This document shows positions 480-20,000 of a stretch of 20,000 nt of DNA, piece by piece (the stretch's first letter is position 1; each line of letters opens with the position of its first letter). Location of the stretch: assembly GCA_002245135.1 (NCBI GenBank), contig NGBS01000600.1:119950-139949 (forward strand), read 5' to 3'. The DNA comes from Proteromonas lacertae (taxonomy: Eukaryota). Under the pieces are notes generated by a model. It was given only the letters and a program-made list of their open reading frames with translations. It had not been told where the DNA came from and made no database searches. Position numbers and translations under genes: made by a program.

Positions 480-1633
480 ATGATTAAAAGAAAAACTAAC
501 AAATATAAATACTGATATTATTTTTCATTAAGCAATCATTATATTTATATTTCATAATAATAATTTTATTAATAAAGAATATATTATTTAAACATAAATT
601 ATTAAACATATACGATGATATTTTAAATCCCATTCAAATTGAAAAGGGGTTATATATATTTTCCGCTATAATAGATAAGTATAGAATTAGGATGTTAATA
701 TTTAATAATAATAAAAGTATCAGAAAATGGTATAATAAATTGTACTGTAATTATAAAGGGGATAATACTTATAGATACATAGCACATATAAAAAGCTACA
801 GCAATATGCATGAGCAATATTATAACTTATTTTGTGGATTATTAAACATAAATATTCATAAGAATATATTATTCATATCAAATAAACCTATCAAACTATT
901 TAATAATTATAATCATACAAAAAAGTATGAGTTATTATTTTGCCTAACAACATTATTTAATTACAATAAGACAGATAGGTTTATAGAATTTGTTGAATAC
1001 TACAGATATTTTGGTGTAGATAAATTTATTGTATATAACACTAATTGTTCAAAAGAAATAGAGAAAATTTACAAATATTATAAACTATTAGGCATAATGG
1101 ATATAATATACGATAACTTTACTCATAATTTATATGAAAAAAAGAGATTTCACTTATGGAAGCACAATGATTGCTTTCATAAATATAAATATTCTGCTAA
1201 GAGAATTATATTTACTGATCATGATGAAATTATATATTCATCTAAATATAAGAATAGTAGAAGCTTATTCTCTTTTTTAAATAAAGACGCTTCGTCGTAT
1301 CTTTTCTATCCAAAATTAATAATTACCAATGGAAAAGGCTTCTTTAATTATGGTAATTATTCAATATGCCCAAATAAACTTTGGAAATATGTTGTTAACA
1401 AACCAAATTGTATTCTTCATGTTAATATACATTTTGTAATAAACAAAAGAAAATGCTATACAGAAAATGTAGATGTAAGTATAGCATACGTAATTCATGC
1501 TAGAAATGAAGTTTCTTATCATGCTAGAGCATGCAAATTATGGAATTATGAAAATAATTATAATCAACAAAAATTAATTTTATCAAATTTTACAAATAAA
1601 GCTAAAGAAGACATAAAAGAAAAAATGGTGTAA
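480..1633 (+). CDS. Glycosyltransferase family 92 (DUF23)-like type II membrane protein; 5' end needs one frameshift
   Basis: ORF 692-1633 has GT92-like motifs (EFVEYYRYFGVDKFIVY, NDCFHKYK, IIFTDHDEII, K..V.P, HF). The frame stays open upstream to 509 and encodes a hydrophobic anchor (LYLYFIIIILLI) and LYIFSA. The nearest ATG (480) is out of frame by 1 nt at an A-run near 507-509. Confidence 0.8.
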
Positions 1634-1683
1634 AATTTTATCTTAAAATAATAAATAATAAGAGAAATAGATCTTATGTTTTT

Positions 1684-2655
1684 ATGATTAACAATTTATT
1701 AATAATCAATTAATCTATATACACTTTTAATTATTTTATACTGTTATATACATTTACTTTATTTACATTTGAGTTATTCAGAAGAACAGAACTATTATAA
1801 CTTAATTATATCTAAGAAAGAATCTCTGAAAATAGAGAATGAAATAAAACACAACCCTCCATATAATGAAGAAGAATTAATATTACCAAGAATTATAACC
1901 TTAAAAGTTAAAAGAAATATAAAAGTTAAGTACAATAAGGATATAAAATATATCATTGCTGTATTATCATCTCCACATAATTATAAAAAAGATATTCTTT
2001 TAGATATAATTACAAAATACACAGATTTATAAAATATACAAAAATGATATTCTTTATTGGAGCATCCATATTAGAAGATGTTGATATTCTAGAGAAAGAA
2101 ATGATTCTATATGATGATGTTGTTCAGTTTCAATTTCAAAATAGTTACTTAAACTTAACTCTACTCTCTATTATGGCTATGCAGTACTGTTATTTCAATT
2201 TTAAGAATATATTATTCTATATTAAAACTGATGATGATATGTTAATTAACTATACACTTTTAAAATATTTAATAAAAACCACTGATCCTAATAGTAACAA
2301 TATATATGGTCATATGCAGAAGGAAAGAAAAGTAAATAGAAACAAAATCAACATAAATTATATACCATATTTACAATATCCTTATGATTATTTACCAGAG
2401 TATGTATTTGGTGCGTTAATAATTGTCAGTAAATATTCACTAACTAAATTATACAATCAAACTTTATATAGTCAATATTATGTATGGAGAGAAGACATAA
2501 ATCTTGGAATTTTATGTAATATAACAAAATGTAAAGTTAAACAATTTCCCTCCAAAATAGATATTTTATTGCAAAATAGTAGTTGCAAAATATATGATAA
2601 TGTGATAGCAATAGAGTTTAAGTCTTTAAAGGATAATTTTTATTGCTCATATTAA
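1684..2655 (+). pseudogene. GT31 beta-1,3-galactosyl/GlcNAc-transferase family gene, frameshifted (ORFs 1769-2032 and 2044-2655 are one gene)
   Basis: Motifs IIAVLSSPHN, FFIG, E..LYDDVV.F.F.NSYLNLT, KTDDD (2224-2238), PEYVFG and EDINLG. Adding one A to the A6 run at 1985-1990 restores YKKRYSFR... in frame with ORF 2044. The TM segment lies in frame at 1706-1768; the start at ATG 1684 also needs a shift. Confidence 0.8.
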
Positions 2656-2845
2656 TCGATAAATATATAAAGACTATACTACAATTATGCATCAACACTA
2701 GTTAGAATAACAATTTATCCATAACAATTTTTGCAATACAGTGATTTTGTATTTACTAGGTAGATATAAGAAATGAATACTGCAGAGAGGATGAAATTAT
2801 GTTGTATGATGATGATAATGTAGTAGAATCATCTTTTGATCTTCC

Positions 2846-3623
2846 TTTAATAATAATAATATATATATATATATAGTACTTGCATTTTGAAATATCTTCT
2901 TTGTTTCAAAGGTATGTTGTGCGCCGTTTGTCATAGTTAACCGTTTGTCTACCAGACACTTTTAAAACAAACTAAATGTATATTCTTACTTGTCTTGATT
3001 AAAAATTGTTACTTTTATACTTACTTTGCTATATAACCTTACCTCTGCAGTATACACTTTTGTTAATATAAATAGTTTGAATATTTGTGCCGTTTGTTTT
3101 CTAGAAATTTTTGAAACAAACTAAATTCATATTTAGCTAAAATAAACTAAAATACATTAGCTGAAATGATTAGAATATAATAATTATTAAATCCTTCTAT
3201 ATAAAAGAAAACATGTAAAAAATTGGCTTGAGTAATGCTTGATTCTGTATTTTCTTTTTTCATTTTAAATGTCTTATGATCAACATTAAGTTGTTCTAAT
3301 CATTTCAGCTAATGTATTTTAGTCTATATTAGCTAAATATGCATTTAATTTGCTTCAAAAATTTCTAGAAAACAAACGGCACAAATATTCAAACTATTTA
3401 TATTAACAAAAGAGTATACTGCAGAGGTAAGGTTATATAACAAAGTAAGTATAAAAGTAACAATTTTTAATCATGACAAGTAAGAATATACATTTAGTTT
3501 GTTTTAAAAGTGTCTGGTAGACAAATGGCCAACTATAACAAACGGCGCACAACATACCTTTGAAACAAAGAAGATATTTCAAAATGCAAGTACTATATAT
3601 ATATATATATTATTATTATTAAA
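2846..3623. repeat. Long inverted repeat (foldback): 330-bp arms 2846-3175 and 3294-3623, 118-bp spacer
   Basis: Direct reverse-complement match read by eye, including an (AAT)n(AT)n microsatellite at both outer ends. Scattered mismatches occur only inside 2915-3554. Confidence 0.95.
2915..3554. mobile_element. Non-autonomous MITE-like element with ~260-bp TIRs (TGTTGTGCGCCGTTTG...CAAACGGCGCACAACA), hAT-associated family
   Basis: The same terminus ends the copy at 6040 and begins the copy at 11590, next to a hAT transposase. Subterminal CCGTTTG motifs repeat at 2924, 2941 and 3090. No ORF. Confidence 0.8.
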
Positions 3624-3747
3624 ATACTTACTTTATAGAAGCATGTACAGCGAAAGGTATAGAAGCATCATTATTTTATAGAAGTACATGCACAGTCACT
3701 CAAGGCATTAAGATATTTCTAGTTATTTTTATACTTAATTGGTAACC

Positions 3748-4268
3748 ATGCAATTCATCGTCAAATGTAGAGATCTCTTACGAAAGGCAAAGCAGAAGAC
3801 AATAGCCCGATGCCATGAAGAACATAAAGCCTTGGAAGGGAACGCTTAACTCACACCTAGATTATGTACTGCAGTAGATGCCATATATAGATCTGGGAAA
3901 CCTACTAAGAATCAACAACCAGCCATCTCCATCAACTCCAGTGATAAAACAAGGGATATAATTAATCAGCTTAAACAACACAGTATACATGAGATTCTTA
4001 AGACAGTCAAGGACAACAATGATCTAATCGACCATGATGGGATGTTCGATAAGATCCAAAGGTAAAGTCACTTCCGATGTGCTGTCTCTTGAGTCTGTAT
4101 CATCGCTTAAGACAATATGAAGATCATCACCTACTCAGGATAGAATCAATGAGGAGGCAAAAACAGCTTAGTAGTCCTCCTAAGAAGAGACCTATAACAA
4201 CACCCTTACTACCATCGCTAGGTGCTTCAAGTGATCCTCCAGCGAAGCATCTACGGATCTACGGATAA
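3748..4268 (+). pseudogene. Decayed orphan gene in a GC-richer patch resembling the 12861-20000 block
   Basis: ATG 3748 frame reads MQFIVKCRDLLRKAKQK... with in-frame TAA at 3847 and 4063, then shifts into ORF 4077-4268. Preceded by AATTGGTAAC at 3737-3746. Confidence 0.5.
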
Positions 4269-4313
4269 GGAACGTGATTCATAATTAAAATAATTAATTA
4301 TATTCTATTGTGT

Positions 4314-5156
4314 TTAGATATGAATGAAATTATTATTACTTATTTCTGATTTATACTCGTTAAATATATCTTTTCTAAAATTGTATAATAAATTAATTTT
4401 TGCATGATATATTTTCATTAAATCTTTGCTAATATTATATTCTTCAAAATATGGTATCATATTTTCAATCATATACTTTTTGAAATTACTGAATATTTTA
4501 TAAGATTCTTCAATACCTACAGGATTATTTATGAAAGGATGAAATTCTGAAAACACTAAATCAAAGCAATGGAGTATATTTTCTTTAATCATTCTAGGAA
4601 TCATGTAATATTCTTCACCTTCTATATCAAATTTTAAAATGTTAAAATCATTATGTCTTATGTTTAACATAAAATAACTAACTATATCGATTGATCTTAT
4701 TTTCATTATTTTAGCACCTCTTTCTGATTTATTATAATATGCAGAACTTCCTAATGTTCCTGAAGTGGATTTAAAATTTATGAATCCACTTCTATTTGAT
4801 ACAACAACAGGACAGTTAACAAAAAAATTACACATATTTGTTACTGTTTTTAAAAAATTAACATTCTCTTCTATAAAATTACATAAATGAGGATTTGCTT
4901 CAAATACATGTACAGTTACTTTATTAGTCGGAAAATGTTGAAAAAAAGGATAAGGCACATGATATGATCTCTTTCTATTTTTATATCCGAAAAGCCATAA
5001 TAATGAGTCTCCATTGTTTGAACCTAAATCATAATATGAAATTTGGTTGTATTTCTTTATATTACAACATTCATATGAGTTGAATGTGTAAACGAATAGA
5101 GATATATACATTAAATTAATTAATAAAATTACATACCACAAAAATACAATTTTCAT
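4314..5156 (-). CDS. FkbM-family (Methyltransf_21-like) SAM-dependent methyltransferase with N-terminal membrane anchor
   Basis: YYDLGSNNGDS (SAM motif I), VHVFEANP, ILKFDIEGEEY, FSEFH; hydrophobic N-terminus. Confidence 0.85.
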   Translation of the reverse strand: MKIVFLWYVILLINLMYISLFVYTFNSYECCNIKKYNQISYYDLGSNNGDSLLWLFGYKNRKRSYHVPYPFFQHFPTNKVTVHVFEANPHLCNFIEENVNFLKTVTNMCNFFVNCPVVVSNRSGFINFKSTSGTLGSSAYYNKSERGAKIMKIRSIDIVSYFMLNIRHNDFNILKFDIEGEEYYMIPRMIKENILHCFDLVFSEFHPFINNPVGIEESYKIFSNFKKYMIENMIPYFEEYNISKDLMKIYHAKINLLYNFRKDIFNEYKSEISNNNFIHI

Positions 5157-5179
5157 ATTTATTGTGATGATAATTAATT

Positions 5180-5553
5180 ATGTTTATATATATATCAGTT
5201 ATATTTTGTATTTTAGAATCGTTAATTCTTCTAAATATATTTCATTTAAGTTGCTGCACAACAATTCACATAATGATAACTGAATGTAATAGATATACTT
5301 ATTTAAATAAAACATTATTCTCTTTATATTCACATTTACTGAAATATGACCAAAAATTAGATTATACAATTATATTTATTGATCAAGGTACTTTAGAAAG
5401 ATACATAATAAGAACAAATTATAATTTAAGAAATACCTTTTTTATAAGCCCTAAGAATTATGAATACTCGTTTAAAATACTATTCTCTTACATTTATTAT
5501 AATTATGTCTTTTTGCTAGAAGAAGATTGGATTATAAACAAAGAAATATATAA
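5180..5553 (+). pseudogene. GT-A fold (GT2-like) glycosyltransferase, 3'-truncated by a TIR element
   Basis: TM anchor, then IMITECNR..YL..TL.SL, IFIDQG and YVFLLEEDW (DxD-like). The frame runs into repeat-derived sequence from ~5555 and stops at 5593. Confidence 0.65.
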
Positions 5554-5554
5554 T

Positions 5555-6040
5555 TGTACTAGACATTTTTTAACTTTTACATTACTTAACTAATTTCACA
5601 ATTAACAATGTCCTACCTCTGAAGTATACTCTTTTTATTAATATAAAAAGTTAATATAGACAAAAATACACTACTTTAAATCTTTATATAAATAAAGAAA
5701 TGCAAAAATAGGCTTGAGTGAGGCTTGATTCTGTATTTTCTTTTTTCATTTTAAATGTCTTATGATCAACATTAAGTTGTTCTAATCATTTCAGCTAATG
5801 TATTTTAGTCTATATTAGCTAAATATGCATTTAATTTGCTTCAAAAATTTCTAGAAAACAAACGGCACAAATATTCAAACTATTTATATTAACAAAAGAG
5901 TATACTGCAGAGGTAAGGTTATATAACAAAGTAAGTATAAAAGTAACAATTTTTAATCATGACAAGTAAGAATATACATTTAGTTTGTTTTAAAAGTGTC
6001 TGGTAGACAAATGGCCAACTATAACAAATGGCGCACAACA
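5555..6040. mobile_element. Second copy of the MITE-like element; right arm near-identical to copy 1, left arm degenerate
   Basis: 5711-6040 aligns ungapped to 3225-3554 (offset 2486) with only a few mismatches. 5555-5655 has remnants of the left arm (cctacctctgaagtatactc...). The left boundary is approximate. Confidence 0.85.
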
Positions 6041-6099
6041 GAGGATTATTACCTAGAGATCAGTGATTAGCCAAAGGTGAGGAGAGTAACCAAAGATGA

Positions 6100-7133
6100 T
6101 CATATAGAACTGTAATCACTTGATGATTTATCCTTTTCTATAATATCTTTATCCAACAAATCTTGTAATGCACATTTAGCATTTAAATAATCATCAATAC
6201 TAAAACCGAATTTCGCAGTTTTGATATAAGGCTTAACTCTCGGATCTAACAAACAACATATCAAAGGTATTGGTGATTCTTTTATAATTATTGTTAGCAT
6301 TTGATTTATATCATACTTTATACTATCATAAATTTCATTAACTTCAGAACATTTATCTTTACTTAATTCAAATAGCTCTTTCTGCAGTTTTAATATAGAT
6401 AAAAGGGTTTAACAACACTAACAACTTCATTTAGTATTTCAAAATGGATTGACGTTTTTGTGGGGATATATGGTAGTAATGGTTCATTTTTAGGTATTAT
6501 TCCATTAATATTTTCAATAATTTCATTATATTCTTGATTCTTTTGATCAACAAATCTAATAATTTAGGTTTCTCTTCATTAATTTAATTTAACACTAAGT
6601 ATAAGCTGCTCCATCAAGTAATAGTCACAGTGCCTACTGATATATTCTGTTTTGCTTTATTAGACACTGTTCGTAGTTGTTTACCCAAAGTAAAGAATGT
6701 CTGAATTGTCTCATCAACAGGATTACCTAAATATAATAGAACTTTATACCTTTACTTGTGCAGATTTATTTCTTAAATAATCATTATATACATCTCTGCG
6801 AGGTGTTAAGTATCCCAGCTTATAACAGAATATTCTGAATTCTGTTAAATCTAATATTGTAGTATAAACTTCATTGTAAGTAATAAACTTATATTAATTA
6901 TCTTTTATATCTTCCACATTTATTTTACTATCAACTGGATCTTTGTAGTTATGATGACTCATCATATGCCCTTTTATGGCTTTACTGTTTTTAACATTAC
7001 ATTTGTATTGATTACCACATTTACATATCCAGTAAGTCGCTGAAAAATTGAAATCTAATCCTTCTAACTTTTCATCTTCATATAATCTTCTTTCTTAGCT
7101 TGATGTATCAGACGGTAGATTTATTTCAGTCAT
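6100..7133 (-). pseudogene. Degraded hAT-superfamily transposase
   Basis: Minus strand encodes a BED-like finger (WICKCGNQYKC...KGHMMSHH, ~6950-7035), T*WSSLY matching the TRWNS motif (~6600-6620) and CLLDPRVK (ORF 6100-6300). Many stops and frameshifts; no C-terminal dimerisation domain seen. Confidence 0.75.
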
Positions 7134-7357
7134 AGATTTAATGAAAAATGATAACTAAAATTATCAAGCCAAAAAGCTTGTTTGTTTTTCTTTGAAAAAT
7201 TATTTCTCTTTTATAACATAATATAAAAAATGCTTGAAAGCTTTATTTTTGAAAATTATCTTAAGAAAAAGTAAAATCACTGTAACATACTGAATAAGAC
7301 ATTATGGTCATTGCTGGATATCAATATTCATAGAGAAATATATTTAATGATTCTTTA

Positions 7358-8088
7358 ATGTTATATATATCATTGTATTTATTTTCCTTTTATATATTTT
7401 ATTTATTGTTTTTATTCTATAGTAATACTATAATTAATTTTGAAATTAATGGTGATTCAATATTATGGGTGTTTGGCTATAGAAACATTAATACTTCTTA
7501 TCATGTGCCTTATCCATTATTTCAACATTTTCCTACATCAAAAGTATTAGTTCCTTCTTTTGAAGCAAATCCAATGTTATGCAAAATTATTAACCAAAAT
7601 ACCAATTTTCTAATGAAAGTTAGGAACAATAAATTTTACAATAACATCAGGAATATAAGGAAGCTCATTATATTGCAACATGACAAAAAGATCTAAACAA
7701 GTTAAAGTAGTATCTGTCAATATTGTGAATTATATCCTTAAATATATAAATATTGATGATTTTAATATTCTAAAATTTGATATAGAAGGCGAGAGTATTT
7801 TATGGTTCCTAATTTAATTGAATTAAATGTTCTAAAATATTATGATATTGTTTATTCTGAGTGTCACCCTAATATAAACTATCCAATAAGTTTAAGTGAG
7901 TAAAATAAATATTTTCATCTTTTATAAATTATATGAATGAGAATACTATTCCATATAATGAAGAATATAATATTAGCAATGAGTTACAGAAAATATACCA
8001 TTATAAATTGAATACTTTATTTTATTTTAGAAATGATTTATTTAATTATCATAATAATTATAAAGATAATAATTATATTTCCTTGTAA
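7358..8088 (+). pseudogene. FkbM-family methyltransferase pseudogene, paralog of 4314-5156
   Basis: NGDSILWVFGY..SYHVPYPLFQHFPT...FEANP, then DDFNILKFDIEGE, FSECHP and IPYNEEYNIS in shifting frames. Internal deletions (motif I YYDLGS is missing) and an in-frame TAA near 7901. Confidence 0.85.
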
Positions 8089-8202
8089 TAAAATATGGAG
8101 GTTATTAAGGTTTAAACAAATTATTATGGCAGTAAGAATTATTAACCTTTTGATAAATCACTTTTTAATTGATTATAAAGCAAAAAATGTAAATAATATA
8201 AT

Positions 8203-9240
8203 ATGGCCATCTTAATGACTTGTTTTATAATACATTTTATAATTTTGTTATTATATATATATAATTTCTTTTGTATATATAGAAAACATCTCAATCTGTT
8301 TTCTGGAATTGACAGATTAATATATTATGAAAATAAATATAAAAAATGTAATTATACGAAAAATATTCTTTATTGTGGAAGTAAATTTGAAGGGTATAAA
8401 ATAGAACAAATAGATTTCAATACACATTATTTTTATGTAACAAATTTATCAAGAATTATTAAAATTAACAAATATTCAAAAAATAATAAGTGCAGAACTT
8501 CAAAGAATAATATTTTTATTGGTATAACTTCTGCACCAAACTATTATTTACAAAGATCTTCATTTAGATTATCATATAGCAAACATAAAAAATGTGTAAA
8601 GTATGCGTTCTTTACAGGAATGTCTTATAAACACTATGAAAATGATTATCTATTAAAAGAACAGCACCAATATAATGATATAGTTATTTTTGATTTTGTA
8701 TCAACCTATTTTAATTCCAGCTTATTGATGGTTTTAATTATGAAATGGGTGTATAAAAACTGTAAAGAATTTTTATATTTCGTATATCATACATCTGATG
8801 TATTTTTTAATGTTGATTTATTTTTTCAACATTATAATAATACAGATTATAATTATATAGCTAAACTAATATATAGCGCAAAAGTAATAAGGACTAATAG
8901 GAGTAGGTTTTTTATACCTTTAAATATTTACAATGAATCTGTTTTTCCAACATTTCCAAGTGGACCATGTATTGCTATATCATATAATACTATTAAAAGT
9001 ATAAGTTTATTCAACTATAACAGAATAACAAATGTTTGGATTGATGATGTAATAATTGGTATGGTGTTTAATTATTTGCATATCAAAGGTAAAGATATAA
9101 ATAAAGAATGTATAAATAATTATCCCAATTATAAATTAGTACCAAGTTTAAATTACATTAAAAACAAAATTATATATATACATTCTTTGCCACCTGCTGC
9201 TATATATTATTTACATAACAGCTTAATGAGAATAATATAA
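8203..9240 (+). CDS. GT31 galactosyltransferase-family type II membrane protein
   Basis: TM anchor; IGITSAPN...RSSFR, FFTG, E...YNDIV..DFVSTYFN, FPTFPSG, IDDVIIG. The DxD position reads HTSD. Confidence 0.85.
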   Translation: MAILMTCFIIHFIILLLYIYNFFCIYRKHLNLFSGIDRLIYYENKYKKCNYTKNILYCGSKFEGYKIEQIDFNTHYFYVTNLSRIIKINKYSKNNKCRTSKNNIFIGITSAPNYYLQRSSFRLSYSKHKKCVKYAFFTGMSYKHYENDYLLKEQHQYNDIVIFDFVSTYFNSSLLMVLIMKWVYKNCKEFLYFVYHTSDVFFNVDLFFQHYNNTDYNYIAKLIYSAKVIRTNRSRFFIPLNIYNESVFPTFPSGPCIAISYNTIKSISLFNYNRITNVWIDDVIIGMVFNYLHIKGKDINKECINNYPNYKLVPSLNYIKNKIIYIHSLPPAAIYYLHNSLMRII

Positions 9241-9628
9241 TATAACTATAATTCATATATAAATTAATTACCTATAAATAGAAAAACTCTTCTTTATAAT
9301 CATCTTTTTTTTAAAAAAGAGTTTTTCAAGTTATGCATATAGCATACATAAATTTAGATATAAATGTTTTTAATAATAAAATATATGTTATAACATTTTC
9401 AAATATCCATTAGTTTAAGAGTTACACTCTTCTTAATCTATATCAAAAGATTAGTGAATAAATAAGTCACTATAAGATATATAATACTCACATCCTATGA
9501 CAGAGTCAATTCTCCTATGTTTGTTTTTAGTATGGATGAAAGTGGTTTATATTATGATAAAAGTAAGCTATAACAGCAAACATAATCTTTAAATGATCTA
9601 ATTTCATTTCAAAATTTATATAAATATA

Positions 9629-10366
9629 ATGAATATCTACTGCAAAGTAATAGTAGCTTATATATTTTTATTAGCTATATATAATATTCTTATAATTTAT
9701 TCATCTAAAAGTATATACGTAGTAGTTTCATCTTGCTCAAATAAGACATATATGAATATAAAAGAATCACTAATTCCATTTGAAGTTATTTTTTTGTTTT
9801 GCAATAGAAGTACAAATTTGGTTGATTCATATGAGGCAGGTCCTATGTTAGATTTTATCATCAAAAATTATAATAGGAAAGGTAATATAAAATATATTTT
9901 TATTCATGATCATGACATTTCATGGCACTATAAACAGAGCATTTATATTAGATTCAGAAATAAGAAACTTTTAAATTATTTCAAAAATGTCAAATTCGGA
10001 GGAATCTATTGTATGAATATCAAATTTGGTATAAAAAGTAGATATGAGTTTTTATTTAACTTAACTTACGGAGTTGATAAATATATGAGAATGAACAAAT
10101 ATGTAAACATGTCTATATTGCATTTATATACACAAAAAATAGTTTTTCCTTGTTGCTCAACATTTATTGTAGATAGTTCACTAATTAAAGAATATCCTGT
10201 TTCTATTTTTAGAAACATAAGAAAAGGACTAAAAGAATATGTAAAAATTTACAAAAAAAACAAATTATCAGCTCAGTATATGGAATATATGTGGATTATA
10301 TTATTTGGAAGAAAAAAAATAGAATATCCCTATGATTGCAATGTAAATAATATTTATACTATGTAA
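9629..10366 (+). CDS. DUF3431-family membrane-anchored protein (putative glycosyltransferase-like)
   Basis: EA.PMLDFIIKNY, YIFIHDH..SWH, PCCSTFIV, I..YP and MEYMW..LFG match the DUF3431 pattern as I recall it. Confidence 0.75.
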   Translation: MNIYCKVIVAYIFLLAIYNILIIYSSKSIYVVVSSCSNKTYMNIKESLIPFEVIFLFCNRSTNLVDSYEAGPMLDFIIKNYNRKGNIKYIFIHDHDISWHYKQSIYIRFRNKKLLNYFKNVKFGGIYCMNIKFGIKSRYEFLFNLTYGVDKYMRMNKYVNMSILHLYTQKIVFPCCSTFIVDSSLIKEYPVSIFRNIRKGLKEYVKIYKKNKLSAQYMEYMWIILFGRKKIEYPYDCNVNNIYTM

Positions 10367-10394
10367 TTGATTTTTTAATTTATTTATTTTGTTA

Positions 10395-11408
10395 CTATAA
10401 TATATCTTTAGGATATGCAAATAAACTAAATTCACATGACCATGGTTCACAGTTATTGAACTGATGATATTCATAAATATAATTATCAAGATATGCTTCT
10501 AATAGATGCCTTATTTTAAAGTACTCATCATAGTTATGATATATAGCTATACTTAAAACAGGTCTTTGTAGAATAATTGTATTTTTTGCGCCAAAAATAA
10601 AATTTAATGCTGATCCTTCTATATCCACTTTAATAAATCCTATCCTATTTTTATTGTAAAAATGTTCATTATCAAGTGTATCTATTTTTACAATTATTTT
10701 TTTTTCATTCCCTTTTCCTATTCCCACTCCTCCATGACCATAATCAGACAAAGAAATATTTCCTGAAAAATTACTTAATCCCATTTCATGTATTATATAT
10801 TTTTCTGGTTTAAGTAAATTTCTGACTATTGTTCTTTTTAATTTCTTTAAATTTATTCTAGAAAATTCATATAAATGTATTATTTTTTGCGTATAGTTTT
10901 GTAATACAACCAATGAATCTCCAATACATGAACCTACATCAATAATGTCCTTGTCATATATATATTTCTTAATTTTAATACTTGAAAATCTTAATCCATG
11001 GTGATAGTAAAAAACTTCTTCAGTATAATATTCTAAAGAGTATAACTGCTTATATGTTTCTATTTCTTTTTCAAACAATTTATGGTTTGTAACTTGATGT
11101 TTTGTTAAATGCTTGATTAATCTATCACATAATAATGAATCGATAATTATGTTAAACTGAGAATCTAGAGCAGAAATTGATTTTTCATCACTACTTGACT
11201 TTAAAAACATAAAATATGCAGAAATGAATTTCTTTATTTTACTATAATTATTATTGTATTTATTTAACAAATTATTCTTTAATTCTATATTAGTTTCGTA
11301 TAGATTATATCCTGTAGTAGCACATCTGTTATTTTCATTTAAAATATAGCTTTTATAAAATATTAAAATAAACAATATAATACATATGCATAGGATTATA
11401 ATTTTCAT
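10395..11408 (-). CDS. FkbM-family SAM-dependent methyltransferase (second subfamily), membrane-anchored
   Basis: FYYHHGL, DIIDVGSCIGDS, IHLYEF, IGFIKVDIEGS, GAKNTI..QRPVLSIAIYH. The likely start is MKIIILCICIILF at 11408; the ORF extends to 11492. Confidence 0.88.
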   Translation of the reverse strand: MKIIILCICIILFILIFYKSYILNENNRCATTGYNLYETNIELKNNLLNKYNNNYSKIKKFISAYFMFLKSSSDEKSISALDSQFNIIIDSLLCDRLIKHLTKHQVTNHKLFEKEIETYKQLYSLEYYTEEVFYYHHGLRFSSIKIKKYIYDKDIIDVGSCIGDSLVVLQNYTQKIIHLYEFSRINLKKLKRTIVRNLLKPEKYIIHEMGLSNFSGNISLSDYGHGGVGIGKGNEKKIIVKIDTLDNEHFYNKNRIGFIKVDIEGSALNFIFGAKNTIILQRPVLSIAIYHNYDEYFKIRHLLEAYLDNYIYEYHQFNNCEPWSCEFSLFAYPKDIL

Positions 11409-11589
11409 GTTAATTTGATGTTCATTACTATAATAAGCAAATGAATATATATAAAAATGTAATGCCGAAAATAGCATATTTAAATTGACCATTCAAACAC
11501 CACTATTCAAGTGTCAAGCTTTTTATAATACTGGCGGAATAGGATTTACAATTAAAGTGACAAGGCAAAAACAAATTAATGAAAATATA

Positions 11590-12860
11590 TGTTGTGTGCA
11601 GTTTGTCATAGTTGGCCGTTTGTCTAACACACACTTTTAAAACAAACTAAATACATATTTTTACTTGTATTGATGAAAAATTGTTAGATTTATACTTACT
11701 TTGTTATATGACCTACCTCTTCAGTTTAATTTATCATTGGAAAAATATTGTTTTATAAAATATATACTATCGTACAACATACACATTTGTTAAATCTTCT
11801 TATTATTTTATTTATTTTTAGTATTCTAATCCAAATGATAATAAGAACTAATGTTTTTATATTTTATAAATCTCTATTTCTCGAAATTAGCACTTTCATT
11901 TCAATATGCTCAGATGATATATTACATTTGTTTAAATTGCTTAGTCTTACAGTTTCACTAAAGATTCATTCTGATACACTAGAAGATGGTTGGCGTGCTA
12001 AGTACTTTTTCGCAATTTTAAAAACACGTAGAAAATAAGCTTTAACAGTAAGCCATATATTAGATAGATCTTCTCCAGTGCTAAATATTTCTCTATATTC
12101 TAGATAATTCATCACTTCTTTATCATTACTTAATCTTCTACCCTTTATTGATTTACTTTTTAAATACTTATCTAGTTCATTGTTATAACTAATATATTCA
12201 TCTTCAATATCTAGAGTGTTATCATTATCATAATCTATTAAATTATCTAATGTATTCTTAGCTTCGCTATATTCTTCGGCAGTAAATCCTAATAAAGGTA
12301 TAGCAAACAACATAATAAAGGTATTGGTGTTTCATTGTTAATTATTTTTATCTTTTTCTATGAGATTTCTTTTTATATTTTTTGCATATTCATTTTGTTT
12401 TGATGGATATATATCGGTATTAAGTTCATTAATTACTTTCTTTATATTTAACATAGCCATCCCCAAATTGGTTTCTCTTTTTTCCATTAACAATGTTATG
12501 TTGTAAAATGGTTTCAAAATGTTTACTAAATAATCAAGAACAATATAATTAGCTGATTTATTACTCGTATAATAGAAAAAAGTGAATTCCATCTTGTATT
12601 TTTTATTATGCCTACAGAATTCTCAATCTTTTTATGATTTACTACAGTTTATAAAAGTTTAGATAATCCAACAAATTAATTTATTGTCTGTTTAACAATA
12701 TTTTCTTATTCACCACTTTTTTTATCCAATTCATCCAATGCTTTGTTGATAGACAGTTGGATTGTATGAAGAAAACATCTTATATTTGGGATATTTATAT
12801 CTTTGATGGATTTTATAACATTTGCTACATTTTCGCTTGTAATGCAATTAAATCTGATAT
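11590..12860 (-). mobile_element. 3' portion of a hAT DNA transposon: TIR 11590-~11725 plus transposase remnant, 5' part interrupted at ~12860
   Basis: 11590-11725 is a diverged copy of the MITE TIR (tgttgtgtgcagtttgtcatagttggccgtttgtct...). It lies downstream of the transposase fragments. Confidence 0.8.
11864..12860 (-). pseudogene. hAT transposase pseudogene (catalytic and dimerisation regions)
   Basis: ITSENVAN, RCFLHTIQLSI (CxxH motif), TRWNS (12583-12597), LKPF..IT..ME and LARQPSSSVSE*IFS (dimerisation motif), ending RNRDL* at 11864. Confidence 0.88.
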
Positions 12861-13125
12861 AGTGTGACTTCATTGATGCAATCGATGAAGCTCCCGTAAG
12901 GGTCAACTCTGAATTTAGAAGGGGACTAACTCCTAGAACACTCGTTAGAACTCTGTGACAATATCCCATAGTCCCATTTACGTAAGGTTCCTACGGGATT
13001 CCTCCCAACAGGGTCTACTTCTCAACGGGGTCTGCTTCCCTACGGGGACTCCTGTAAGCTATTTCTATACCTACCTATACCTATCTATGAGACGATCTCC
13101 TACGGGTACTCCTGGAAGCTATCTA
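12861..13125. repeat. Terminal hairpin and short direct repeats at the left end of the insert
   Basis: Hairpin cttcattgat-gca-atcgatgaag (12868-12890). 24-bp repeat cctacggg(g/t)actcctg(t/g)aagctat at 13039 and 13099, partial at 12990. 17-bp tandem caac(a/g)gggtct(a/g)ctt at 13006 and 13023. Confidence 0.75.
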
Positions 13126-13237
13126 GAAGTGTTGGTTACCTCAAGGTGATGATTCTAATCATGCTCTTGACTCTCCTTGCTACGCTGGTGATCTTGTAAG
13201 GGCTTTTAATTGAACCGTGGAAACCAATCGTGGAACC

Positions 13238-13297
13238 GGGAGTTTACAATTGTTAACTTGTTACCAATTGTTAACTCCTGGACTTTACAATTGTTAA
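13238..13297. promoter_or_regulatory. Triple CAATTGTTAA(C) motif upstream of the first ORF of the insert; putative promoter element
   Basis: Copies at 13247, 13265 and 13288; related copies at 15161, 15191-15204, 19091 and 3737. Confidence 0.5.
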
Positions 13298-13332
13298 GAT
13301 CTCCATTGAGTCTTTTCTGATCTGTGAATACT

Positions 13333-14075
13333 ATGAAGAGAACCAGACCTATCAATGCCTCCGAGGAATCTTCTAACGATGAGGAAGACACTAAGGTGTT
13401 CAGAATTAAGCTTAAGCCGGAGTATAAGAAGTTGAAGGCTGAGATGATTGCTGCTGCCGATGATGATGATGTTCCTCCTCCTCTCCCTCCTAAACCTCCT
13501 AAACCTCCTAAATCTATACTAACAATCACTAACTCCAAGGATGAAGACGATGATGATGTTCCTTTCAATGCAGAGATCATGGACCTGGTAAGAGACTTCA
13601 AAGCTGACAATACACCGATAAAGCTAGGGTCCGTGATTACTTACCTTGATTATAAACGATGTTGTTTGAATGAGTTCCTGGATGCCCTTTACAATTACGT
13701 GTCGAAGGAGATCACCTTGAATGAAGACATATCATGACCAGGATGAAGAAGCGCTGTAAGCTTATCAGATACAACAATCGCAAGGAAGAAGACTATGGAT
13801 ACATCCCCCTAGGCCATCTCATGGAGCTTTGCAACTGCACCTGTGCATTCAGAACATTGAAGTATCTTCTTGGCTATGACATCGAACAGCTTACTGCTAG
13901 CAAGAAGATGAAGCAGTACATGGACTTCCTCCAGCCAACCTTGAAGGTTAAGTACTTATTGAATATCTTCTCAGTAATGAAGAACAAGTTCGATCAGTTC
14001 TGTATCATTAGTCCTAAGATGGATGATCTTGACCTTACTGAATCTACGGATGTTGAATCCTCCGGTGAGGACTAA
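13333..14075 (+). CDS. Orphan ORF pair (13324-13737 and 13734-14075), possibly one frameshifted gene; acidic and Pro-rich N-terminus
   Basis: ATGA overlap at 13734-13737; DDDDVPPPLPPKPPKPPK tract; no family recognised. Confidence 0.5.
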
Positions 14076-14158
14076 CTAGCATTACTTAAACCTGATAATC
14101 TCTTGTTCTATTCTATCTCAGCGTTGTCCTTGAAGGTTCCTTTGAAGTGTCTTTTCAA

Positions 14159-14248
14159 TTGTTCATTGCATTGTTGTCTTGAGGAGATCACTTACGGGGA
14201 CGCTTAGTGTTATTTAAGCAATCCCCCAAGACAACAAACAATAAACAA
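14159..14248. terminator. Imperfect long hairpin between convergent genes; putative 3'-end signal
   Basis: ttgttgtcttg (14171-14181) pairs perfectly with caagacaacaa (14227-14237), extendable to ~30 bp with mismatches and G-U pairs. Confidence 0.5.
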
Positions 14249-14347
14249 AGACTAATTAATTACTTCTTTAAGTGGACGTGGAAGGATCGGAGATCTCTAC
14301 AGAAGGAAGTAAGGTTGAGGTTCAGCTTCTCTAATTGAATCGCCTTC

Positions 14348-15102
14348 TTAAGGATTGGAATTGATAGATGAAGTCTGGTCATAAACTGATAGAACATTGA
14401 CGGCAAAGTCATCTTCCCAGGAGTTTGTGCTCGAGCCATCGAAGTAGTAGTTCATGATCCATTGCAGTGCTTCCACCTTCCACATCTTGTTATTGTAACT
14501 CAATTGTCCATATCGTTCCTTTGCCGAGAGGACAAAGAAGTTATATTCATCGAGCAGTAGTTGATATACATAGCCTGGGTAAAATCTCTCAGTGATGTTA
14601 AAGACATGATCTTGCGTGGCATTGCTAAGGATCACTATCGGTAGATTTGAAGATAGGCTCATACAATGCATAAGGAGCTGACCGATGGTATAGTCCAGTT
14701 GTTGCATGATGCTATGATCTTCAACCCCGAGGTTGTTAAGGGAACATCTCTGATCGAAGTCTTCCCATAGTTCTTCATCATATAGGAGGCTGGGAATAAG
14801 GTATCGTCAAAGTCAAGGATGATGATTGTCTTGAGAATAGCGATGGAGATCCCCTGGTTGTATTAGTAAGGATGAGCAATGCCTAAGAGTTGATCGAAGG
14901 CTGTTTTATAGGAAGATCGATTCTCTTGACTGGTGACTCCTGGTAATCCATTGACGAATTGCGGACTGTTGCTATACTCCATGTGAGTGTGTTCATAAGG
15001 CATTGCTTTGATGGAGGCTATTTGAGGGTGATCATTCTCGGGAGTAGATTCACCGATAAGTAAAGGAGGACGGTAAGGAGCAATCGATCTAGTAATGACC
15101 AT
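14348..15102 (-). pseudogene. HAD-superfamily hydrolase-like gene split by one TAA and one frameshift
   Basis: ORF 14863-15102 continues past TAA into YNQGISIAILKTIIILDFDDTLFP (DxD motif, 14800-14814). It then shifts into ORF 14348-14707 with IVILSNA, VLSAKERY and WKVEA. Confidence 0.7.
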
Positions 15103-15240
15103 GATTGAAAGGCAAGGAAATTGATCAATGCTGGGAATGTCGATTCATAACTCACTTCGGAATTGTTAACACTTCAGAACTTCTTCCGGCGGGAGTTACC
15201 AATTTACTTAATCGTTCATTTCCTTGGATCTTACTGAGCA

Positions 15241-16694
15241 ATGGATTTTGACTTTGATCGCTTAGTGCTTCCGTTATGGACTTATAGCTTCCGTGAGTTC
15301 TTCTGTCATGACGAAGTGCTGGTAAGCGTCTTTGGAATCCTCCTTATATTGAACGTCCAGATGTTCCTTGAAGATCACCCAGCTATTGAGCATAGCAGTT
15401 GTTGCAGATTGATCCGAAGTATCTTGTTTACCATCCTTCTAATGATGATGCTGATAGCTCTTTGGGTTGCTATGAACTCTATACCTTAAGTAACTTCTCC
15501 TATCGATAAATACTCTTTAATTAACTCTTACCAGATGTTGTTCTTGGGATGGACTTATCATAGCAGGCATCTCTGTATTCAACTTTTTCTGATCCTCCTA
15601 GAGAGACTTTGCCTTATGAATACTCAACAAGCATTATCTACCCGTACTACCTCTAGCCTTGAATTACAACAGTGTGAGCCTATGGCTACTTCTACTCATA
15701 AGAAGTCCAAGGTACTTATCATCACTCCCGTAAAGGTAAAGAATTCACGTTCAATTGCTAAGCGTAGTAAGGCTATGAAGTCATCCACCAATTCCAATGA
15801 CTCCAAGAAGCGTAAGCTTAATAAGTACTTAGCACTCAAGGCACCAGTAATATCTCAATCATCGAAGGCATCTCCTACTGTTGCTAGCACTACACTTAAG
15901 AAGAAGCTCCCCAGAGGCAAGACAACTTCCTCGGCACAGTCATCCAAAGATGTCACTATCAAGAACTTAACGAAGACCTTGAAGTCCATCCGCAGCAAGG
16001 ACAAGATCATTGACTATGTGGCTATATGCTCTGACTTACGAAAACATCTTCGTTCCTGCTATCAACTACTTCAAGAGACTAAAGCAAAAGCTGATAAGCT
16101 CACTTCCGAGGAAGTACGTCTATCATCAGAGATCATGGACAAGATCTTGGAAGCTATAAAGCACTCTAGCAACCTCCTCAACGATGAAGTCAAGAGTCAG
16201 GACGCTTACATTAATAAGATCCTTGACGATCTTAAACTAGCTTCTGTATCTGATCCATCAGTGACAGCTACATCAGTTCCTGCTTCATTACCAACCCCAA
16301 CATCTATTCCCAAAGATGATATTCAAGTAACTACCGATAGCTTTAAGGTAAAGCAAGAGAATCAATCATCCAGTTCTACACCCTCATACACTACTTCAAT
16401 TCACCGATAGTAAGTTCCTTGGTCTGGCAATCCAACAACCTCTGGACTATCAACACCAGCAAGTACTTCCCCATCAATTCCTTTACAAGTTCCCATGCAG
16501 GTTCCTATTCAGGCTCCTTTGAAAACTACAAAGACTGTTAAAGGTAAGAGATCTACAAAATCATCCTTTCTACTCCTCCAGCATCAATGAACTACTACTC
16601 TAACTACAATCCTTATGCTGCTTACGTTCCATCATTCAGAGGAGTCTATCAGCAACAGGCCCAACAAATACCGACCTTATCCAGATACTTCTAA
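15241..16694 (+). pseudogene. Orphan gene(s): N-terminal multi-TM region, Lys/Ser-rich linker, coiled-coil-like segment, S/T/P-rich tail
   Basis: ORFs 15241-15489 and 15535-16410 share a frame and are separated only by TAA 15487. The frame continues after TAG-TAA (16408-16413) to 16590, and a shifted frame ends at 16694. Confidence 0.5.
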
Positions 16695-16870
16695 GTTCCT
16701 TAATCACTTATTGTTAATAACCTTGAGTTGTTTACGGGCTGCTGCAATCATCGTCTAGGATCTATCGGAGATGCTTATTATCACTCCCTTTATCATCTCC
16801 TATCGATGATATCTACTTTGATTATTGTCCATCCCTACATAAAACCTTTAAGATCACTTAGGTAATTTAC

Positions 16871-18980
16871 TTAAAGGCAATGATCACCATCACAATAGCT
16901 TACTTCAATCGGGAATGGTTGATTGTAGTCTCCATCTAGTTCATTTCCTTGAACTTCCTCGGGACTTAGATCGATCTTGATAATCCCTTGAGGAGCTTCT
17001 GATAAAGTCAGGTTCTGATACTTGACGTAGGAGTCGGTAATACTCCTCCTTGGAGATCTCTTCATAAGGCATCTGTGGGTAGGTTGTTTTCATCTGGTCA
17101 GTGGCAACTGAAGGTAAGAATGATACTCCCTTGAGTTGATATTGAAAGTAGTCTAGTGCGTGTTGAATATGGGGCCCTTCTAGTTTTCGGATCAAAGGTA
17201 ATCGTACAGGACACTTGATTGTCAGCCCAGTACTTCTGAACGAAGGCTAGCAACATCAGCTGCTCGTACATCGGTACCTCCTTGATAGTTCTAACTCCTT
17301 TTACTTCGACTGGGAAGGAGATCACCGAGGTTGTCTCTGGGCAATAGAAGTCATCTTCAATCGGATACTTTGCATGCTTCAAGACTCTAATTAATGGACT
17401 ATTCTTATCTATCCTAATCCTTCTAACGTAGTAGTTGCTCTGTGGGAAGTGAATCCCTGGAGTTGCTCAAGCAAGTAGACTGACTGTACCACTTGGCTTT
17501 ACCGATGTTGTCTTGATTGATCGTGGAATGCAGAACCACTCGAGTAGATCCTATCCCAGTGTTGGATAGTTGAATAGCCTTCTTCCATCCAAGTCTTGAG
17601 AATATCAACTCCGTACTTATCAATGAACTGTGCTATCCCACTGATACTGCATCCGATCCTTCTATTCCTTAACATCACTCTGTTGGTCTCTGGCCAGTGA
17701 GTCATCCCCAGAGTCACAGTCTTGGCATATAGGTAAGCAAACTTTAGTGTCCTTAAGAACTCTCCTAGATTATGTTGACGATAAGGAAACGTCTCTACCA
17801 GGCAACACATCTCATAAAACTCCAGCGATTGTTCTAGACAAGGATTACCACCGAGAACTCTTCGATCCTTCTTATTCTTTGGATCGCCCTAGCCTTCCAT
17901 ACTCTTGCATGTTCTTCAACCAGCAGATACCAGGCTCTCCATTCTTCCGTATGCGTTCAGTTATATTGCTATAGTCCATTCCTTTGATTGCAAAGACACT
18001 GTTGTTGGATGCCCATCCAAAGGAGCTTCTGTCTGGGTTGAGATCATAGTCCTTGAGGTTAAGGAACTCTTCATCGTGATGTTCTCCAAAGGCTATCTCT
18101 GCGGATCTTTGGACATTACCACTGACTATGCATCTACCGATGAGGTTTCCTAAGTCCACGATTGCTCTTGTTGATATGGCTTACCGATGAGATCATCCAG
18201 GACTAGTCGGATAGAGTGATGAAGCTCCTTCAGAGGAGTTGCCCACTAGCAACTCCTCCGAATACTTTAAGTACCTTTCCCTTGTCTCGGATTTCTCGTA
18301 GTTGAAGTAAACAGCTGGCTGCTTTACGAAGTGAAACATCTTAACCTTGTTACCTTCCACATCCTCAGATTCATACATCTCACGCCTTCCATAGTAGACT
18401 CCAACAAGAGACTCAAGGAGTTCACCCAGCCTTCTCGGGAGTCAGGAATCTCGTAATACATGGACTGTTGTAAGCGATCGGGTCCTTGAATGATAATCTT
18501 TTCTTTACCGGTAGTATCAAAACCTACTCCAACTCCCAGCATACTCGCATCCATCAGGAACTTGAAGGGCTTTACGGGATCAATATCGATATCCTTAGTT
18601 GATACGAATGCACAGTTGTTGAGTGCAGCACTTAGCTTCTTCCAGAGGTAGGAACTTCATGTTGAACATTAGATCATACATCTCCTTAGCTGAGCTTAAT
18701 CCTTGCTCTTCATTCCATCCTAAGCATTGCTCTTGTATGTAGTCCTTCTGCAGTGTATAAGTGCCTTCAACAACTCTTCTTACCGTCTGATACCATTCTT
18801 CATAGACTGGAGGATCATCGTTGATTAACCTGGAGTACGTTCTACGATAGATGAACTCACCGAGACCATTGAATCCAAAGGGGCCTTTACGGTCTTATAC
18901 TTATCGATGAAACTATCGGGGAGATGAAATGATAAGGACGACTATGCCGTGCAAGACATATTGCTTATTGCTAGACTCAT
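16871..18980 (-). pseudogene. nrdJ: Monomeric class II (adenosylcobalamin-dependent) ribonucleotide reductase, fragmented
   Basis: Reassembled motifs: GFNGLGEFIYRRTYSR, AALNNCAFVST, FLMDASMLGVGVGFD, IPDSREGWV, VSGNVQRSAEIAFG, GEPG, GGNPCLEQ..E.CCLVE (thiyl Cys at 17838-17840), NRRIGCS, VKPSGTVSLLA, WADNQVSCT, YPQMPYEEI and C-terminal CDGDHC. Many frameshifts, stops and one motif deletion. Confidence 0.95.
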
Positions 18981-19398
18981 AAGAAAGTCAATGACTAGGA
19001 GTTGTCGGTGATGCCAAGATCCCTTGAAGTAAGTTGTACCATAAACATCCGTATTACGTATTAGTAGGTTCCATTCCCATTTTCCCCGGACAATTGTTAT
19101 TAGCTTCTAGTGGCTCCAGATACGTCAAGGGGGTCTCACTTCATCAGCTCAGTATAATCCAACATAAAAACTCCCATTAATACTTACCCAACTGCGAGGT
19201 GCTTTCTCTTGACTGCTCCAGCTTACGACTTCACTGACATGGAATAGCACTCGTGTTTATCCTTCCAGGCAAAGCTCTTCTTCTTCTAGACATCATCTTC
19301 AAATCACTTTGGTTATAAGTTCCTTTGAAGTTCATCCTAGAGCATCTCCGTAGTGTTGATGTTAGTGCGTTATAGAACACCCCAACAAAGTCAATTAA

Positions 19399-20000
19399 TT
19401 AGAAGGGAAGATCGTTAAGCAAGTTACATTGAACTCCACGGTCCTTGAATACTACAATTGGCCTTGATACTCCCACGATATGATCTGTTTCAGATACCTT
19501 ACAATAATGACCACTTCCATCTTCAAGAGGAACGTAAAGTGTTGGTCTACGACATCTAAGGTTAGTTATTATCTCCTCCTTTACCTTCATTGACTTCAAA
19601 GGTAGTTCAGGTGCACACTCAGGTATTGGAATCTCGAATGCTTCTGGGGAGTACTCAGGTATTGGAATATCAACTGGGTTGTTGACGATAAGCTTATCAG
19701 AGAAGGTAAGTTTCTTATGGTGTTGATGATTCTTCTTTGACGATACCTACGCACTCTTCACAGCTCTTGTAATATCCTCCATCCCGTTTCAGAAACTCCT
19801 TCCTTGGGTGGATCTTGAAGCACCTATAGCATAAGACTCCATTCAAAGGTAACTTATTCTAATATAGATTCACACGTCTCATCCTGTATAGTTGTTGATA
19901 CTTATTGCGTTCTTCACGGCATTGACTACAGATCTTATAGAAGTGCTTGCAGTCTCGTTTAATTTCTCTAGGGCGTCTTCTACGACTATAGCAACAAATA
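19399..20000 (-). pseudogene. Orphan gene with two CxxC...YKxCxxC zinc-finger-like repeats (5' end outside the window)
   Basis: Minus frame from the window end: ..CCYSR...FYKICSQCRE...NLY*NK...CYRCFK...EF....YYKSCEEC. It then shifts to a 12-aa tandem (DIPIPEYSPEAF/EIPIPECAPELP; 16-bp repeat at 19617 and 19653) and ORF 19399-19599. Confidence 0.55.

Follow-up and report, generated by a model that had tools for sequence, protein, structure and literature searches.

The window, which is the whole 20,000-nucleotide stretch of DNA that was analysed, holds a gene for a monomeric class II ribonucleotide reductase (NrdJm, also RTPR). This gene lies in a foreign-looking block beside AT-rich host DNA, and the features of the window are as follows.

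3700..4285, no strand: second patch of 39% GC within the host DNA, with a word bias like that of the block (z = 5.2)
11588..12860, minus strand: remnant of a host DNA transposon (terminal-repeat-like end, decayed transposase), whose 5' end adjoins the block
12861..20000, no strand: foreign-looking block with 42% GC in spacers as well as genes, extending past the end of the window
13324..13737, plus strand: 137-aa ORF with a proline repeat, without known relative
13734..14075, plus strand: 113-aa ORF, with no match among 1.84 billion representatives
14348..14870, minus strand: frameshifted gene with a DFDDTL motif
15679..16410, plus strand: Lys/Ser/Thr-rich ORF, without known relative
16871..18959, minus strand: NrdJm/RTPR, intron-free and broken in the assembly, alignable from 18938
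16877..16915, minus strand: NrdJm tail FPIEVSYC..C (motif of the Blastocystis clade and C-terminal Cys pair)
16877-16894, minus strand: CDGDHC, the C-terminal Cys pair, in another frame
17485-17499, minus strand: KPSGT
17802-17813, minus strand: EMCC (second redox Cys)
17832-17846, minus strand: NPCLE (thiyl-radical Cys and Glu), within 17802..17846
18606..18620, minus strand: NNCAF, first redox cysteine region, aligned with 1L1L via P0001
18630..18645, minus strand: 16 nt in place of 57 nt in relatives (net 41-nt loss, PGRGLWxxG segment removed), with a frameshift point near 18645
19402..20000, minus strand: broken gene in which a PE-rich repeat comes after three CxxC pairs, without family match

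The reductase gene and its breaks

In the minus-strand translation of 16500-19400, ribonucleotide reductase is distributed across all three frames. Six of the seven minus-strand pieces scanned matched the RTPR model of NCBIfam (TIGR02505), in the same order as in the model. The N-terminal piece matched the Pfam family RNR_Alpha (PF17975, 1e-26) and a second piece the monomer insertion domain (PF21995), the latter as a fragment at 4e-5, below the cut-off. The sole match of the central piece in the PDB was the L. leichmannii enzyme (1L1L), in which NPCGE and EPC align with NPCLE and EMCC of the window copy. Relatives of the window copy are fitted far better by 1L1L than by the dimeric 1XJK.

The window gene is a full-length monomeric class II ribonucleotide reductase in which all catalytic cysteine motifs are present, and the family, domain and structure matches bear out the earlier note, which had named it as a full-length NrdJ/RTPR with these motifs. 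The window copy has the domain order of TIGR02505 and 1L1L, together with NPCxE, the two redox cysteines, the alpha domain, the insertion domain that mimics a dimer and the C-terminal cysteine pair, while an open frame with the PPGRGLW segment was not found for it in the window. Unlike RTPR of the L. leichmannii type, it is broken in the assembly, has a tail of the Blastocystis type and lies in a foreign block in a eukaryote-like genome.

In the NrdJm family, adenosylcobalamin generates a thiyl radical on the cysteine of NPCxE. NTPs are converted to dNTPs via the two redox cysteines, the C-terminal cysteine pair relays electrons from thioredoxin, and neither oxygen nor a second subunit is required. 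As a member of this family, the enzyme encoded in the window would be expected to catalyse adenosylcobalamin-dependent reduction of NTPs.

NrdJm is interrupted by 10 frameshifts and two in-frame stops and has lost a net 41 nt after KFLP. Frameshift-aware alignment to the Blastocystis protein P0001 gave 399 identities over 626 aligned residues, with nine frameshift points (near 18892, 18645, 18400, 18296, 18237, 18181, 17886, 17539 and 17181) and one in-frame stop (near 17467). The tenth frameshift lies between the YPQMPY region and the C-terminal cysteines, and the second stop separates the alignable start from the ATG closest upstream of it. Single-base events account for eight of the frameshift points (six losses and two gains).

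The spacing from KFLP to AALNNC is 19 residues (57 nt) in 228 of the 262 relatives in which it was measurable and 16 nt in the window. The segment removed, PGRGLW, is near-invariant, being present in 249 of 273 rows. The loss of a GLWAMG-like segment claimed in the earlier note thus stands as a net loss of 41 nt, and the breaks in the gene exceed those stated there.

Substitutions are few, since only one of the 77 invariant columns and three of the 124 columns conserved at 95% are substituted in the window NrdJm, one of the latter being an alignment artefact at the tail. The corresponding medians for intact relatives are 0 and 1. Between the host transposon copies found in this window, 49 mismatches but only 3 gaps were counted, and the ratio comes from these few gaps in AT-richer DNA. 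Applied to ten indels, this host ratio predicts 56 to 163 substitutions, with 11 to 31 stops or conserved-site changes, whereas at most four were seen (P = 0.02 for the deficit of lesions at the upper limit of the host ratio and 2e-9 at the point estimate). Five host ORFs (4,659 bp, chosen as long and open) contain no breaks, against about 20 predicted from the frameshift rate of the gene. Conserved-site substitutions are few and the host ORFs are unbroken, so this type of damage, mostly indels, is peculiar to the block.

A homopolymer test did not tell error from random indels (p = 0.15), and a comparison of mean run length gave p = 0.016. False frameshifts of such a kind have been reported in multi-copy endogenous viruses (Bellas et al., PMC10120064, section 7), and the breaks in NrdJm are probably, for the most part, artefacts of the consensus. 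A loss of 41 nt would be large as an error of the consensus, and the odds that it is a true lesion of this copy are about even. Real decay of the gene, as read from the lost segment at the outset, is hinted at by this loss, but the other breaks, dominated by indels, are more like errors of the consensus.

Runs of four or more identical bases are depleted throughout the block (12861-20000), to 0.5, 0.28 and 0 of expectation for runs of 4, 5 and 6 or more, respectively. Its frequencies of runs of 4 and of 5 are below those of all 42 control loci of similar GC. Either this depletion is a property of the element itself, or runs were systematically shortened in the consensus.

Kinship with the Blastocystis lineage

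The best matches of the central piece were Blastocystis NrdJm (among the best 120 of 7938). Over the whole read-through (~655 columns), identity was 56 to 60% with Blastocystis NrdJm and at most 57% with all others, and a scan of metagenomes gave only relatives of 55 to 64%. For phylogenetic analysis, 288 proteins and 237 loci gave 404 rows and 123 representatives. Proteins shorter than 540 or longer than 830 aa were dropped, as were loci without an open NrdJm of more than 500 aa, so that 197 of the 237 loci were kept. The trees are unrooted, and sequences from Proteromonas, Dictyostelium and Euglena are absent from them.

Repair of the frame and an NrdJm tree, the check suggested in the earlier note, placed the window copy as sister to the Blastocystis clade and not nested inside it. 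Support for this pairing was 0.973 with FastTree (123 representatives) and 99/95 with IQ-TREE (LG+G4, 44 rows made up of 43 chosen and the window copy), where the crown without the window copy had 98/99. Under a mixture model (24 rows, 23 plus the window copy) the sister pairing dropped to 85/77, with 97/96 for the crown excluding the window copy. AU tests rejected nesting of the window copy with P0001/P0010/P0003 (p = 0.015) and its grouping with the giant-virus rows L058 and L096 (p = 0.038), both groups having been named after the first trees. The window copy sits on a long branch outside the whole Blastocystis clade.

The tail motif [FY]Pxx[VIA]S[FY]C..C is found in 76 of 107 rows of the Blastocystis clade and in none of the 297 others; it was defined after the sequences had been seen and lies outside the read-through used for the trees. 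Four rows only in this clade are named as Blastocystis. Chromosomal NrdJm of Blastocystis (P0001, P0002, P0010 and P0156) are the closest matches to the window copy and have the tail motif in common with it. The window copy branches outside their clade and has ORFans, not recognisable cellular genes, as neighbours. Judged from these sequence comparisons, kinship of the window NrdJm with the Blastocystis lineage is well supported.

Blastocystis has at least two old lineages of NrdJm paralogues (P0001/P0010/P0003 and P0002/P0030), and the window copy split earlier than both.

Two other placements were rejected. For a bacterial origin, the scan of prokaryote genomes gave one 20-residue match, and the best matches to named phages were below 48%. 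A pairing of the clade with the GVMAG rows L064 and L077 had a FastTree support of 0.52 and was lost in IQ-TREE.

The nearest relatives come from an anaerobic gut protist without class I ribonucleotide reductase, in agreement with the anaerobic setting proposed from the sequence alone. Blastocystis is described in PMC3605638 as apparently without the class I enzyme, and the counts published in PMC10690189 are zero for both P. lacertae and Blastocystis. The same counts give 11 proteins with the NrdJm alpha domain in P. lacertae and 2 to 5 in Blastocystis, which may include fragments, and two cobalamin adenosyltransferases in P. lacertae. Monomeric NrdJ is reported as patchy among eukaryotes and horizontally moved (PMC3019208). 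The suggestion that the element is a vehicle for nrdJ among protists was not borne out for distant protists. What the tree indicates is that the gene was captured from the lineage of the host itself or exchanged with it.

The foreign block and the host DNA

The block is compositionally foreign and free of introns. GC content changes at about 12861 from 0.235 to 0.419, and spacers in the block have 38 to 44% GC. Third-position GC is 0.48 in NrdJm and 0.42 to 0.60 in the genes of the block, compared with 0.16 to 0.20 in the five host ORFs. A codon model trained on the block revealed closely packed genes on both strands. The DFDDTL motif of the gene at 14348..14870 is one that we take to be HAD-like; look-alikes of this gene in the Atlas are unnamed clusters, mostly from oomycetes, ciliates and Nucleocytoviricota (0.88-0.90), and are leads only.

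The non-coding left end of the block (13003-13299) contains short direct repeats (17-mers, of the type TTACAATTGTTAA, in 3 copies), which are possibly a terminal or promoter region.

For the neighbour genes, no relative was obtained via Pfam, PHROGs, the representatives, homologue search, the Atlas or the PDB, and all five scans for them on viral contigs were empty. Exact look-up found none of 10 window ORFs, tblastx of the block against the 237 NrdJm loci gave nothing for the neighbours, and Rfam gave no match. A structure search with low-confidence single-sequence folds (pLDDT 41.5 and 38.0) gave no match at E ≤ 0.001. Among the pieces scanned of the 7.1 kb of the block that lie in the window, there was no capsid, polymerase, packaging ATPase or integrase. 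The hallmarks of Polintons (pPolB/primase-helicase, integrase, A32 ATPase and double jelly-roll capsid) were likewise absent from the pieces scanned in these 7.1 kb of a block that continues beyond the window. Core genes of Nucleocytoviricota and Mirusviricota (PolB, major capsid, D5, VLTF3 and RNA polymerase) were not found within the window. A virus-like element, as claimed in the earlier note, agrees with a gene-dense block of foreign composition in an AT-rich eukaryote-like genome, but a hallmark gene to go with it was not found in 7.1 kb.

The junction of the block is sharp and lies at the transposon remnant. A single family of DNA transposons, presumably hAT-like and with long terminal repeats, is represented by two decayed copies, at 5676-7200 and 11588-12860. 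The patch at 3700-4285 has host DNA on either side, and only one of 70 control pieces scores as high. True integration of the block would be favoured, because this patch has the word bias of the block and is flanked by host sequence.

The same patch has stops in every frame, and its dinucleotide and 4-mer biases are as in the block. At 2846-3623 lies an almost perfect palindrome of 780 bp, which consists of transposon-like terminal repeats and has arms that are identical over their outer 68 bp. Either it is a fold-back element, or it arose as an artefact of the assembly.

An intron-free cluster of glycosylation genes occupies 692-11492 and, according to Pfam, encodes GT92, two GT31, two FkbM plus one decayed FkbM, and DUF3431. 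FkbM and DUF3431 number 70 and 7, respectively, in P. lacertae and 0 in 8 Blastocystis genomes in the InterPro table of supplement 7 to PMC10690189. The mix of glycosylation genes in the window matches these published P. lacertae expansions, as a resemblance at the level of the lineage only. On these counts a Blastocystis host was rejected.

Interpretation of the block

The best explanation, with a probability of about 0.55, is that a virus-like element, endogenous to an anaerobic and probably Proteromonas-like gut protist, carries an NrdJm of the host lineage, which would supply dNTPs without oxygen. The block of 42% GC would be an endogenous DNA virus or virus-like element, and its NrdJm gene would probably have been acquired from the host's own lineage, in which case a host orthologue would branch at the same place. 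Where the host lineage lacks the class I enzyme and has a cobalamin adenosyltransferase, a single NrdJm gene of 2 kb could raise the dNTP supply for replication of the element in the anoxic gut. Most of the single-base frameshifts would stem from a false consensus among many copies of the element. We infer here that the element is viral and multi-copy, the latter from published genome counts, and likewise its function and the direction in which the gene was transferred.

Viral capture of a host ribonucleotide reductase is a known type of event; a class II enzyme in an element of an anaerobic gut stramenopile would be a modest departure from it, of more interest if the element is Polinton-like. 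A literature search mostly confined to papers outside subscription found no title or start of an abstract that described such an element. If virus-like, the element, with an NrdJm in common with the Blastocystis/Proteromonas lineage, would point to a DNA virus of these common anaerobic gut protists and would show how dNTPs are made by a eukaryotic virus without oxygen. NrdJm is easily searched and could act as a marker for finding the element, which is no more than a lead as long as no hallmark gene accompanies it.

More tentatively, the block may be one end of an endogenous virus of an anaerobic gut stramenopile, Polinton-like and present in several copies, with a working B12 reductase from the host lineage, the frameshifts being assembly artefacts. 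Endogenous DNA viruses of protists, Polinton-like ones among them, as described in PMC10120064, resemble the block in their sharp GC shift, transposon surroundings and fragmentation of the false-consensus type. The term 'ribonucleo' is absent from the main text of that paper. Unlike Polinton-like viruses, the block has no pPolB, integrase, ATPase, capsid or pair of terminal repeats in the window, in which one end is visible. A Polinton-like identity, if true, would mean a virus of middle size that integrates and has a supply of dNTPs independent of oxygen. It would also account for the published excess of NrdJm in Proteromonas (11) beside 172 viral-type PolB and 60 A32 ATPase, listed together with 54 rve integrases in counts that may include fragments (PMC10690189).

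It is unlikely that the block is not integrated at all and is DNA of a free virus, or of another, related protist, that a low-depth or chimeric long read has linked to the host contig. Such a false join would explain why the block alone is unpolished, with no break in the five host ORFs chosen as open, and would fit a block that extends past the end of the window. The nearby palindrome at 2846-3623 could then be a fold-back artefact. Against a false join, the patch at 3700-4285 has the word bias of the block with host DNA on both sides, and the junction lies at a transposon remnant, which would be a common setting for integration.

Scanning of 26 neighbours revealed open NrdJm frames on giant-virus contigs (L058, L096 and L064; L002 and L077 are labelled as GVMAG). 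On L058 (5986-10933), NrdJm and a major capsid gene of NCLDV are ~2 kb apart and the contig also carries an A22 resolvase, while the NrdJm contig L096 has a capping enzyme and L064 a topoisomerase IB. These genes occupy at least two places in the tree. Like the window copy, they encode a single-gene, oxygen-independent reductase, in a setting of eukaryotic viruses that is putative for the window copy, but their frames are open, they are without the tail motif and they do not group with it. The relatives on viral contigs that the earlier note looked for therefore exist as intact genes, but they are not close to the window copy, as the AU test shows.

All described NCLDV families carry an oxygen-requiring class Ia enzyme, according to a statement in PMC10598087. 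Class II ribonucleotide reductase in giant viruses may be under-reported, because no paper joining NrdJ and Nucleocytoviricota was found in a search that left most subscription papers outside its scope. A search of the same scope for Blastocystis and Mirusviricota found no paper, and the egovirus study (10.1101/2024.03.23.586382) reported no gene flux of these gut viruses with Blastocystis.

A lineage of large DNA viruses as donor of NrdJm to the ancestor of Blastocystis and Proteromonas, with the block as a relic of the donor lineage, is quite improbable. The window copy does branch outside the sampled host genes, and intact NrdJm occurs on giant-virus contigs such as L058. The NrdJm of Blastocystis and of oomycetes formed no group in either the IQ-TREE or the mixture-model tree, and viruses were proposed in PMC3605638 as vectors for another eukaryotic NrdJ clan. 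However, grouping with L058 and L096 was rejected, deep nodes of the tree are without resolution, and a Proteromonas host gene, absent from the trees, could sit beside the window copy.

Least probable is a reading without any virus, in which the gene is nrdJ of the host itself, or a paralogue, from a region of the host genome that is richer in GC: a Proteromonas-like orthologue would be expected exactly at the branch of the window copy, sister to Blastocystis, and a lineage without class I enzyme must carry NrdJ, but the neighbours are tightly packed ORFans without Pfam, PHROG or representative matches, and GC is ~40% in spacers as well as in codons, with a sharp boundary.
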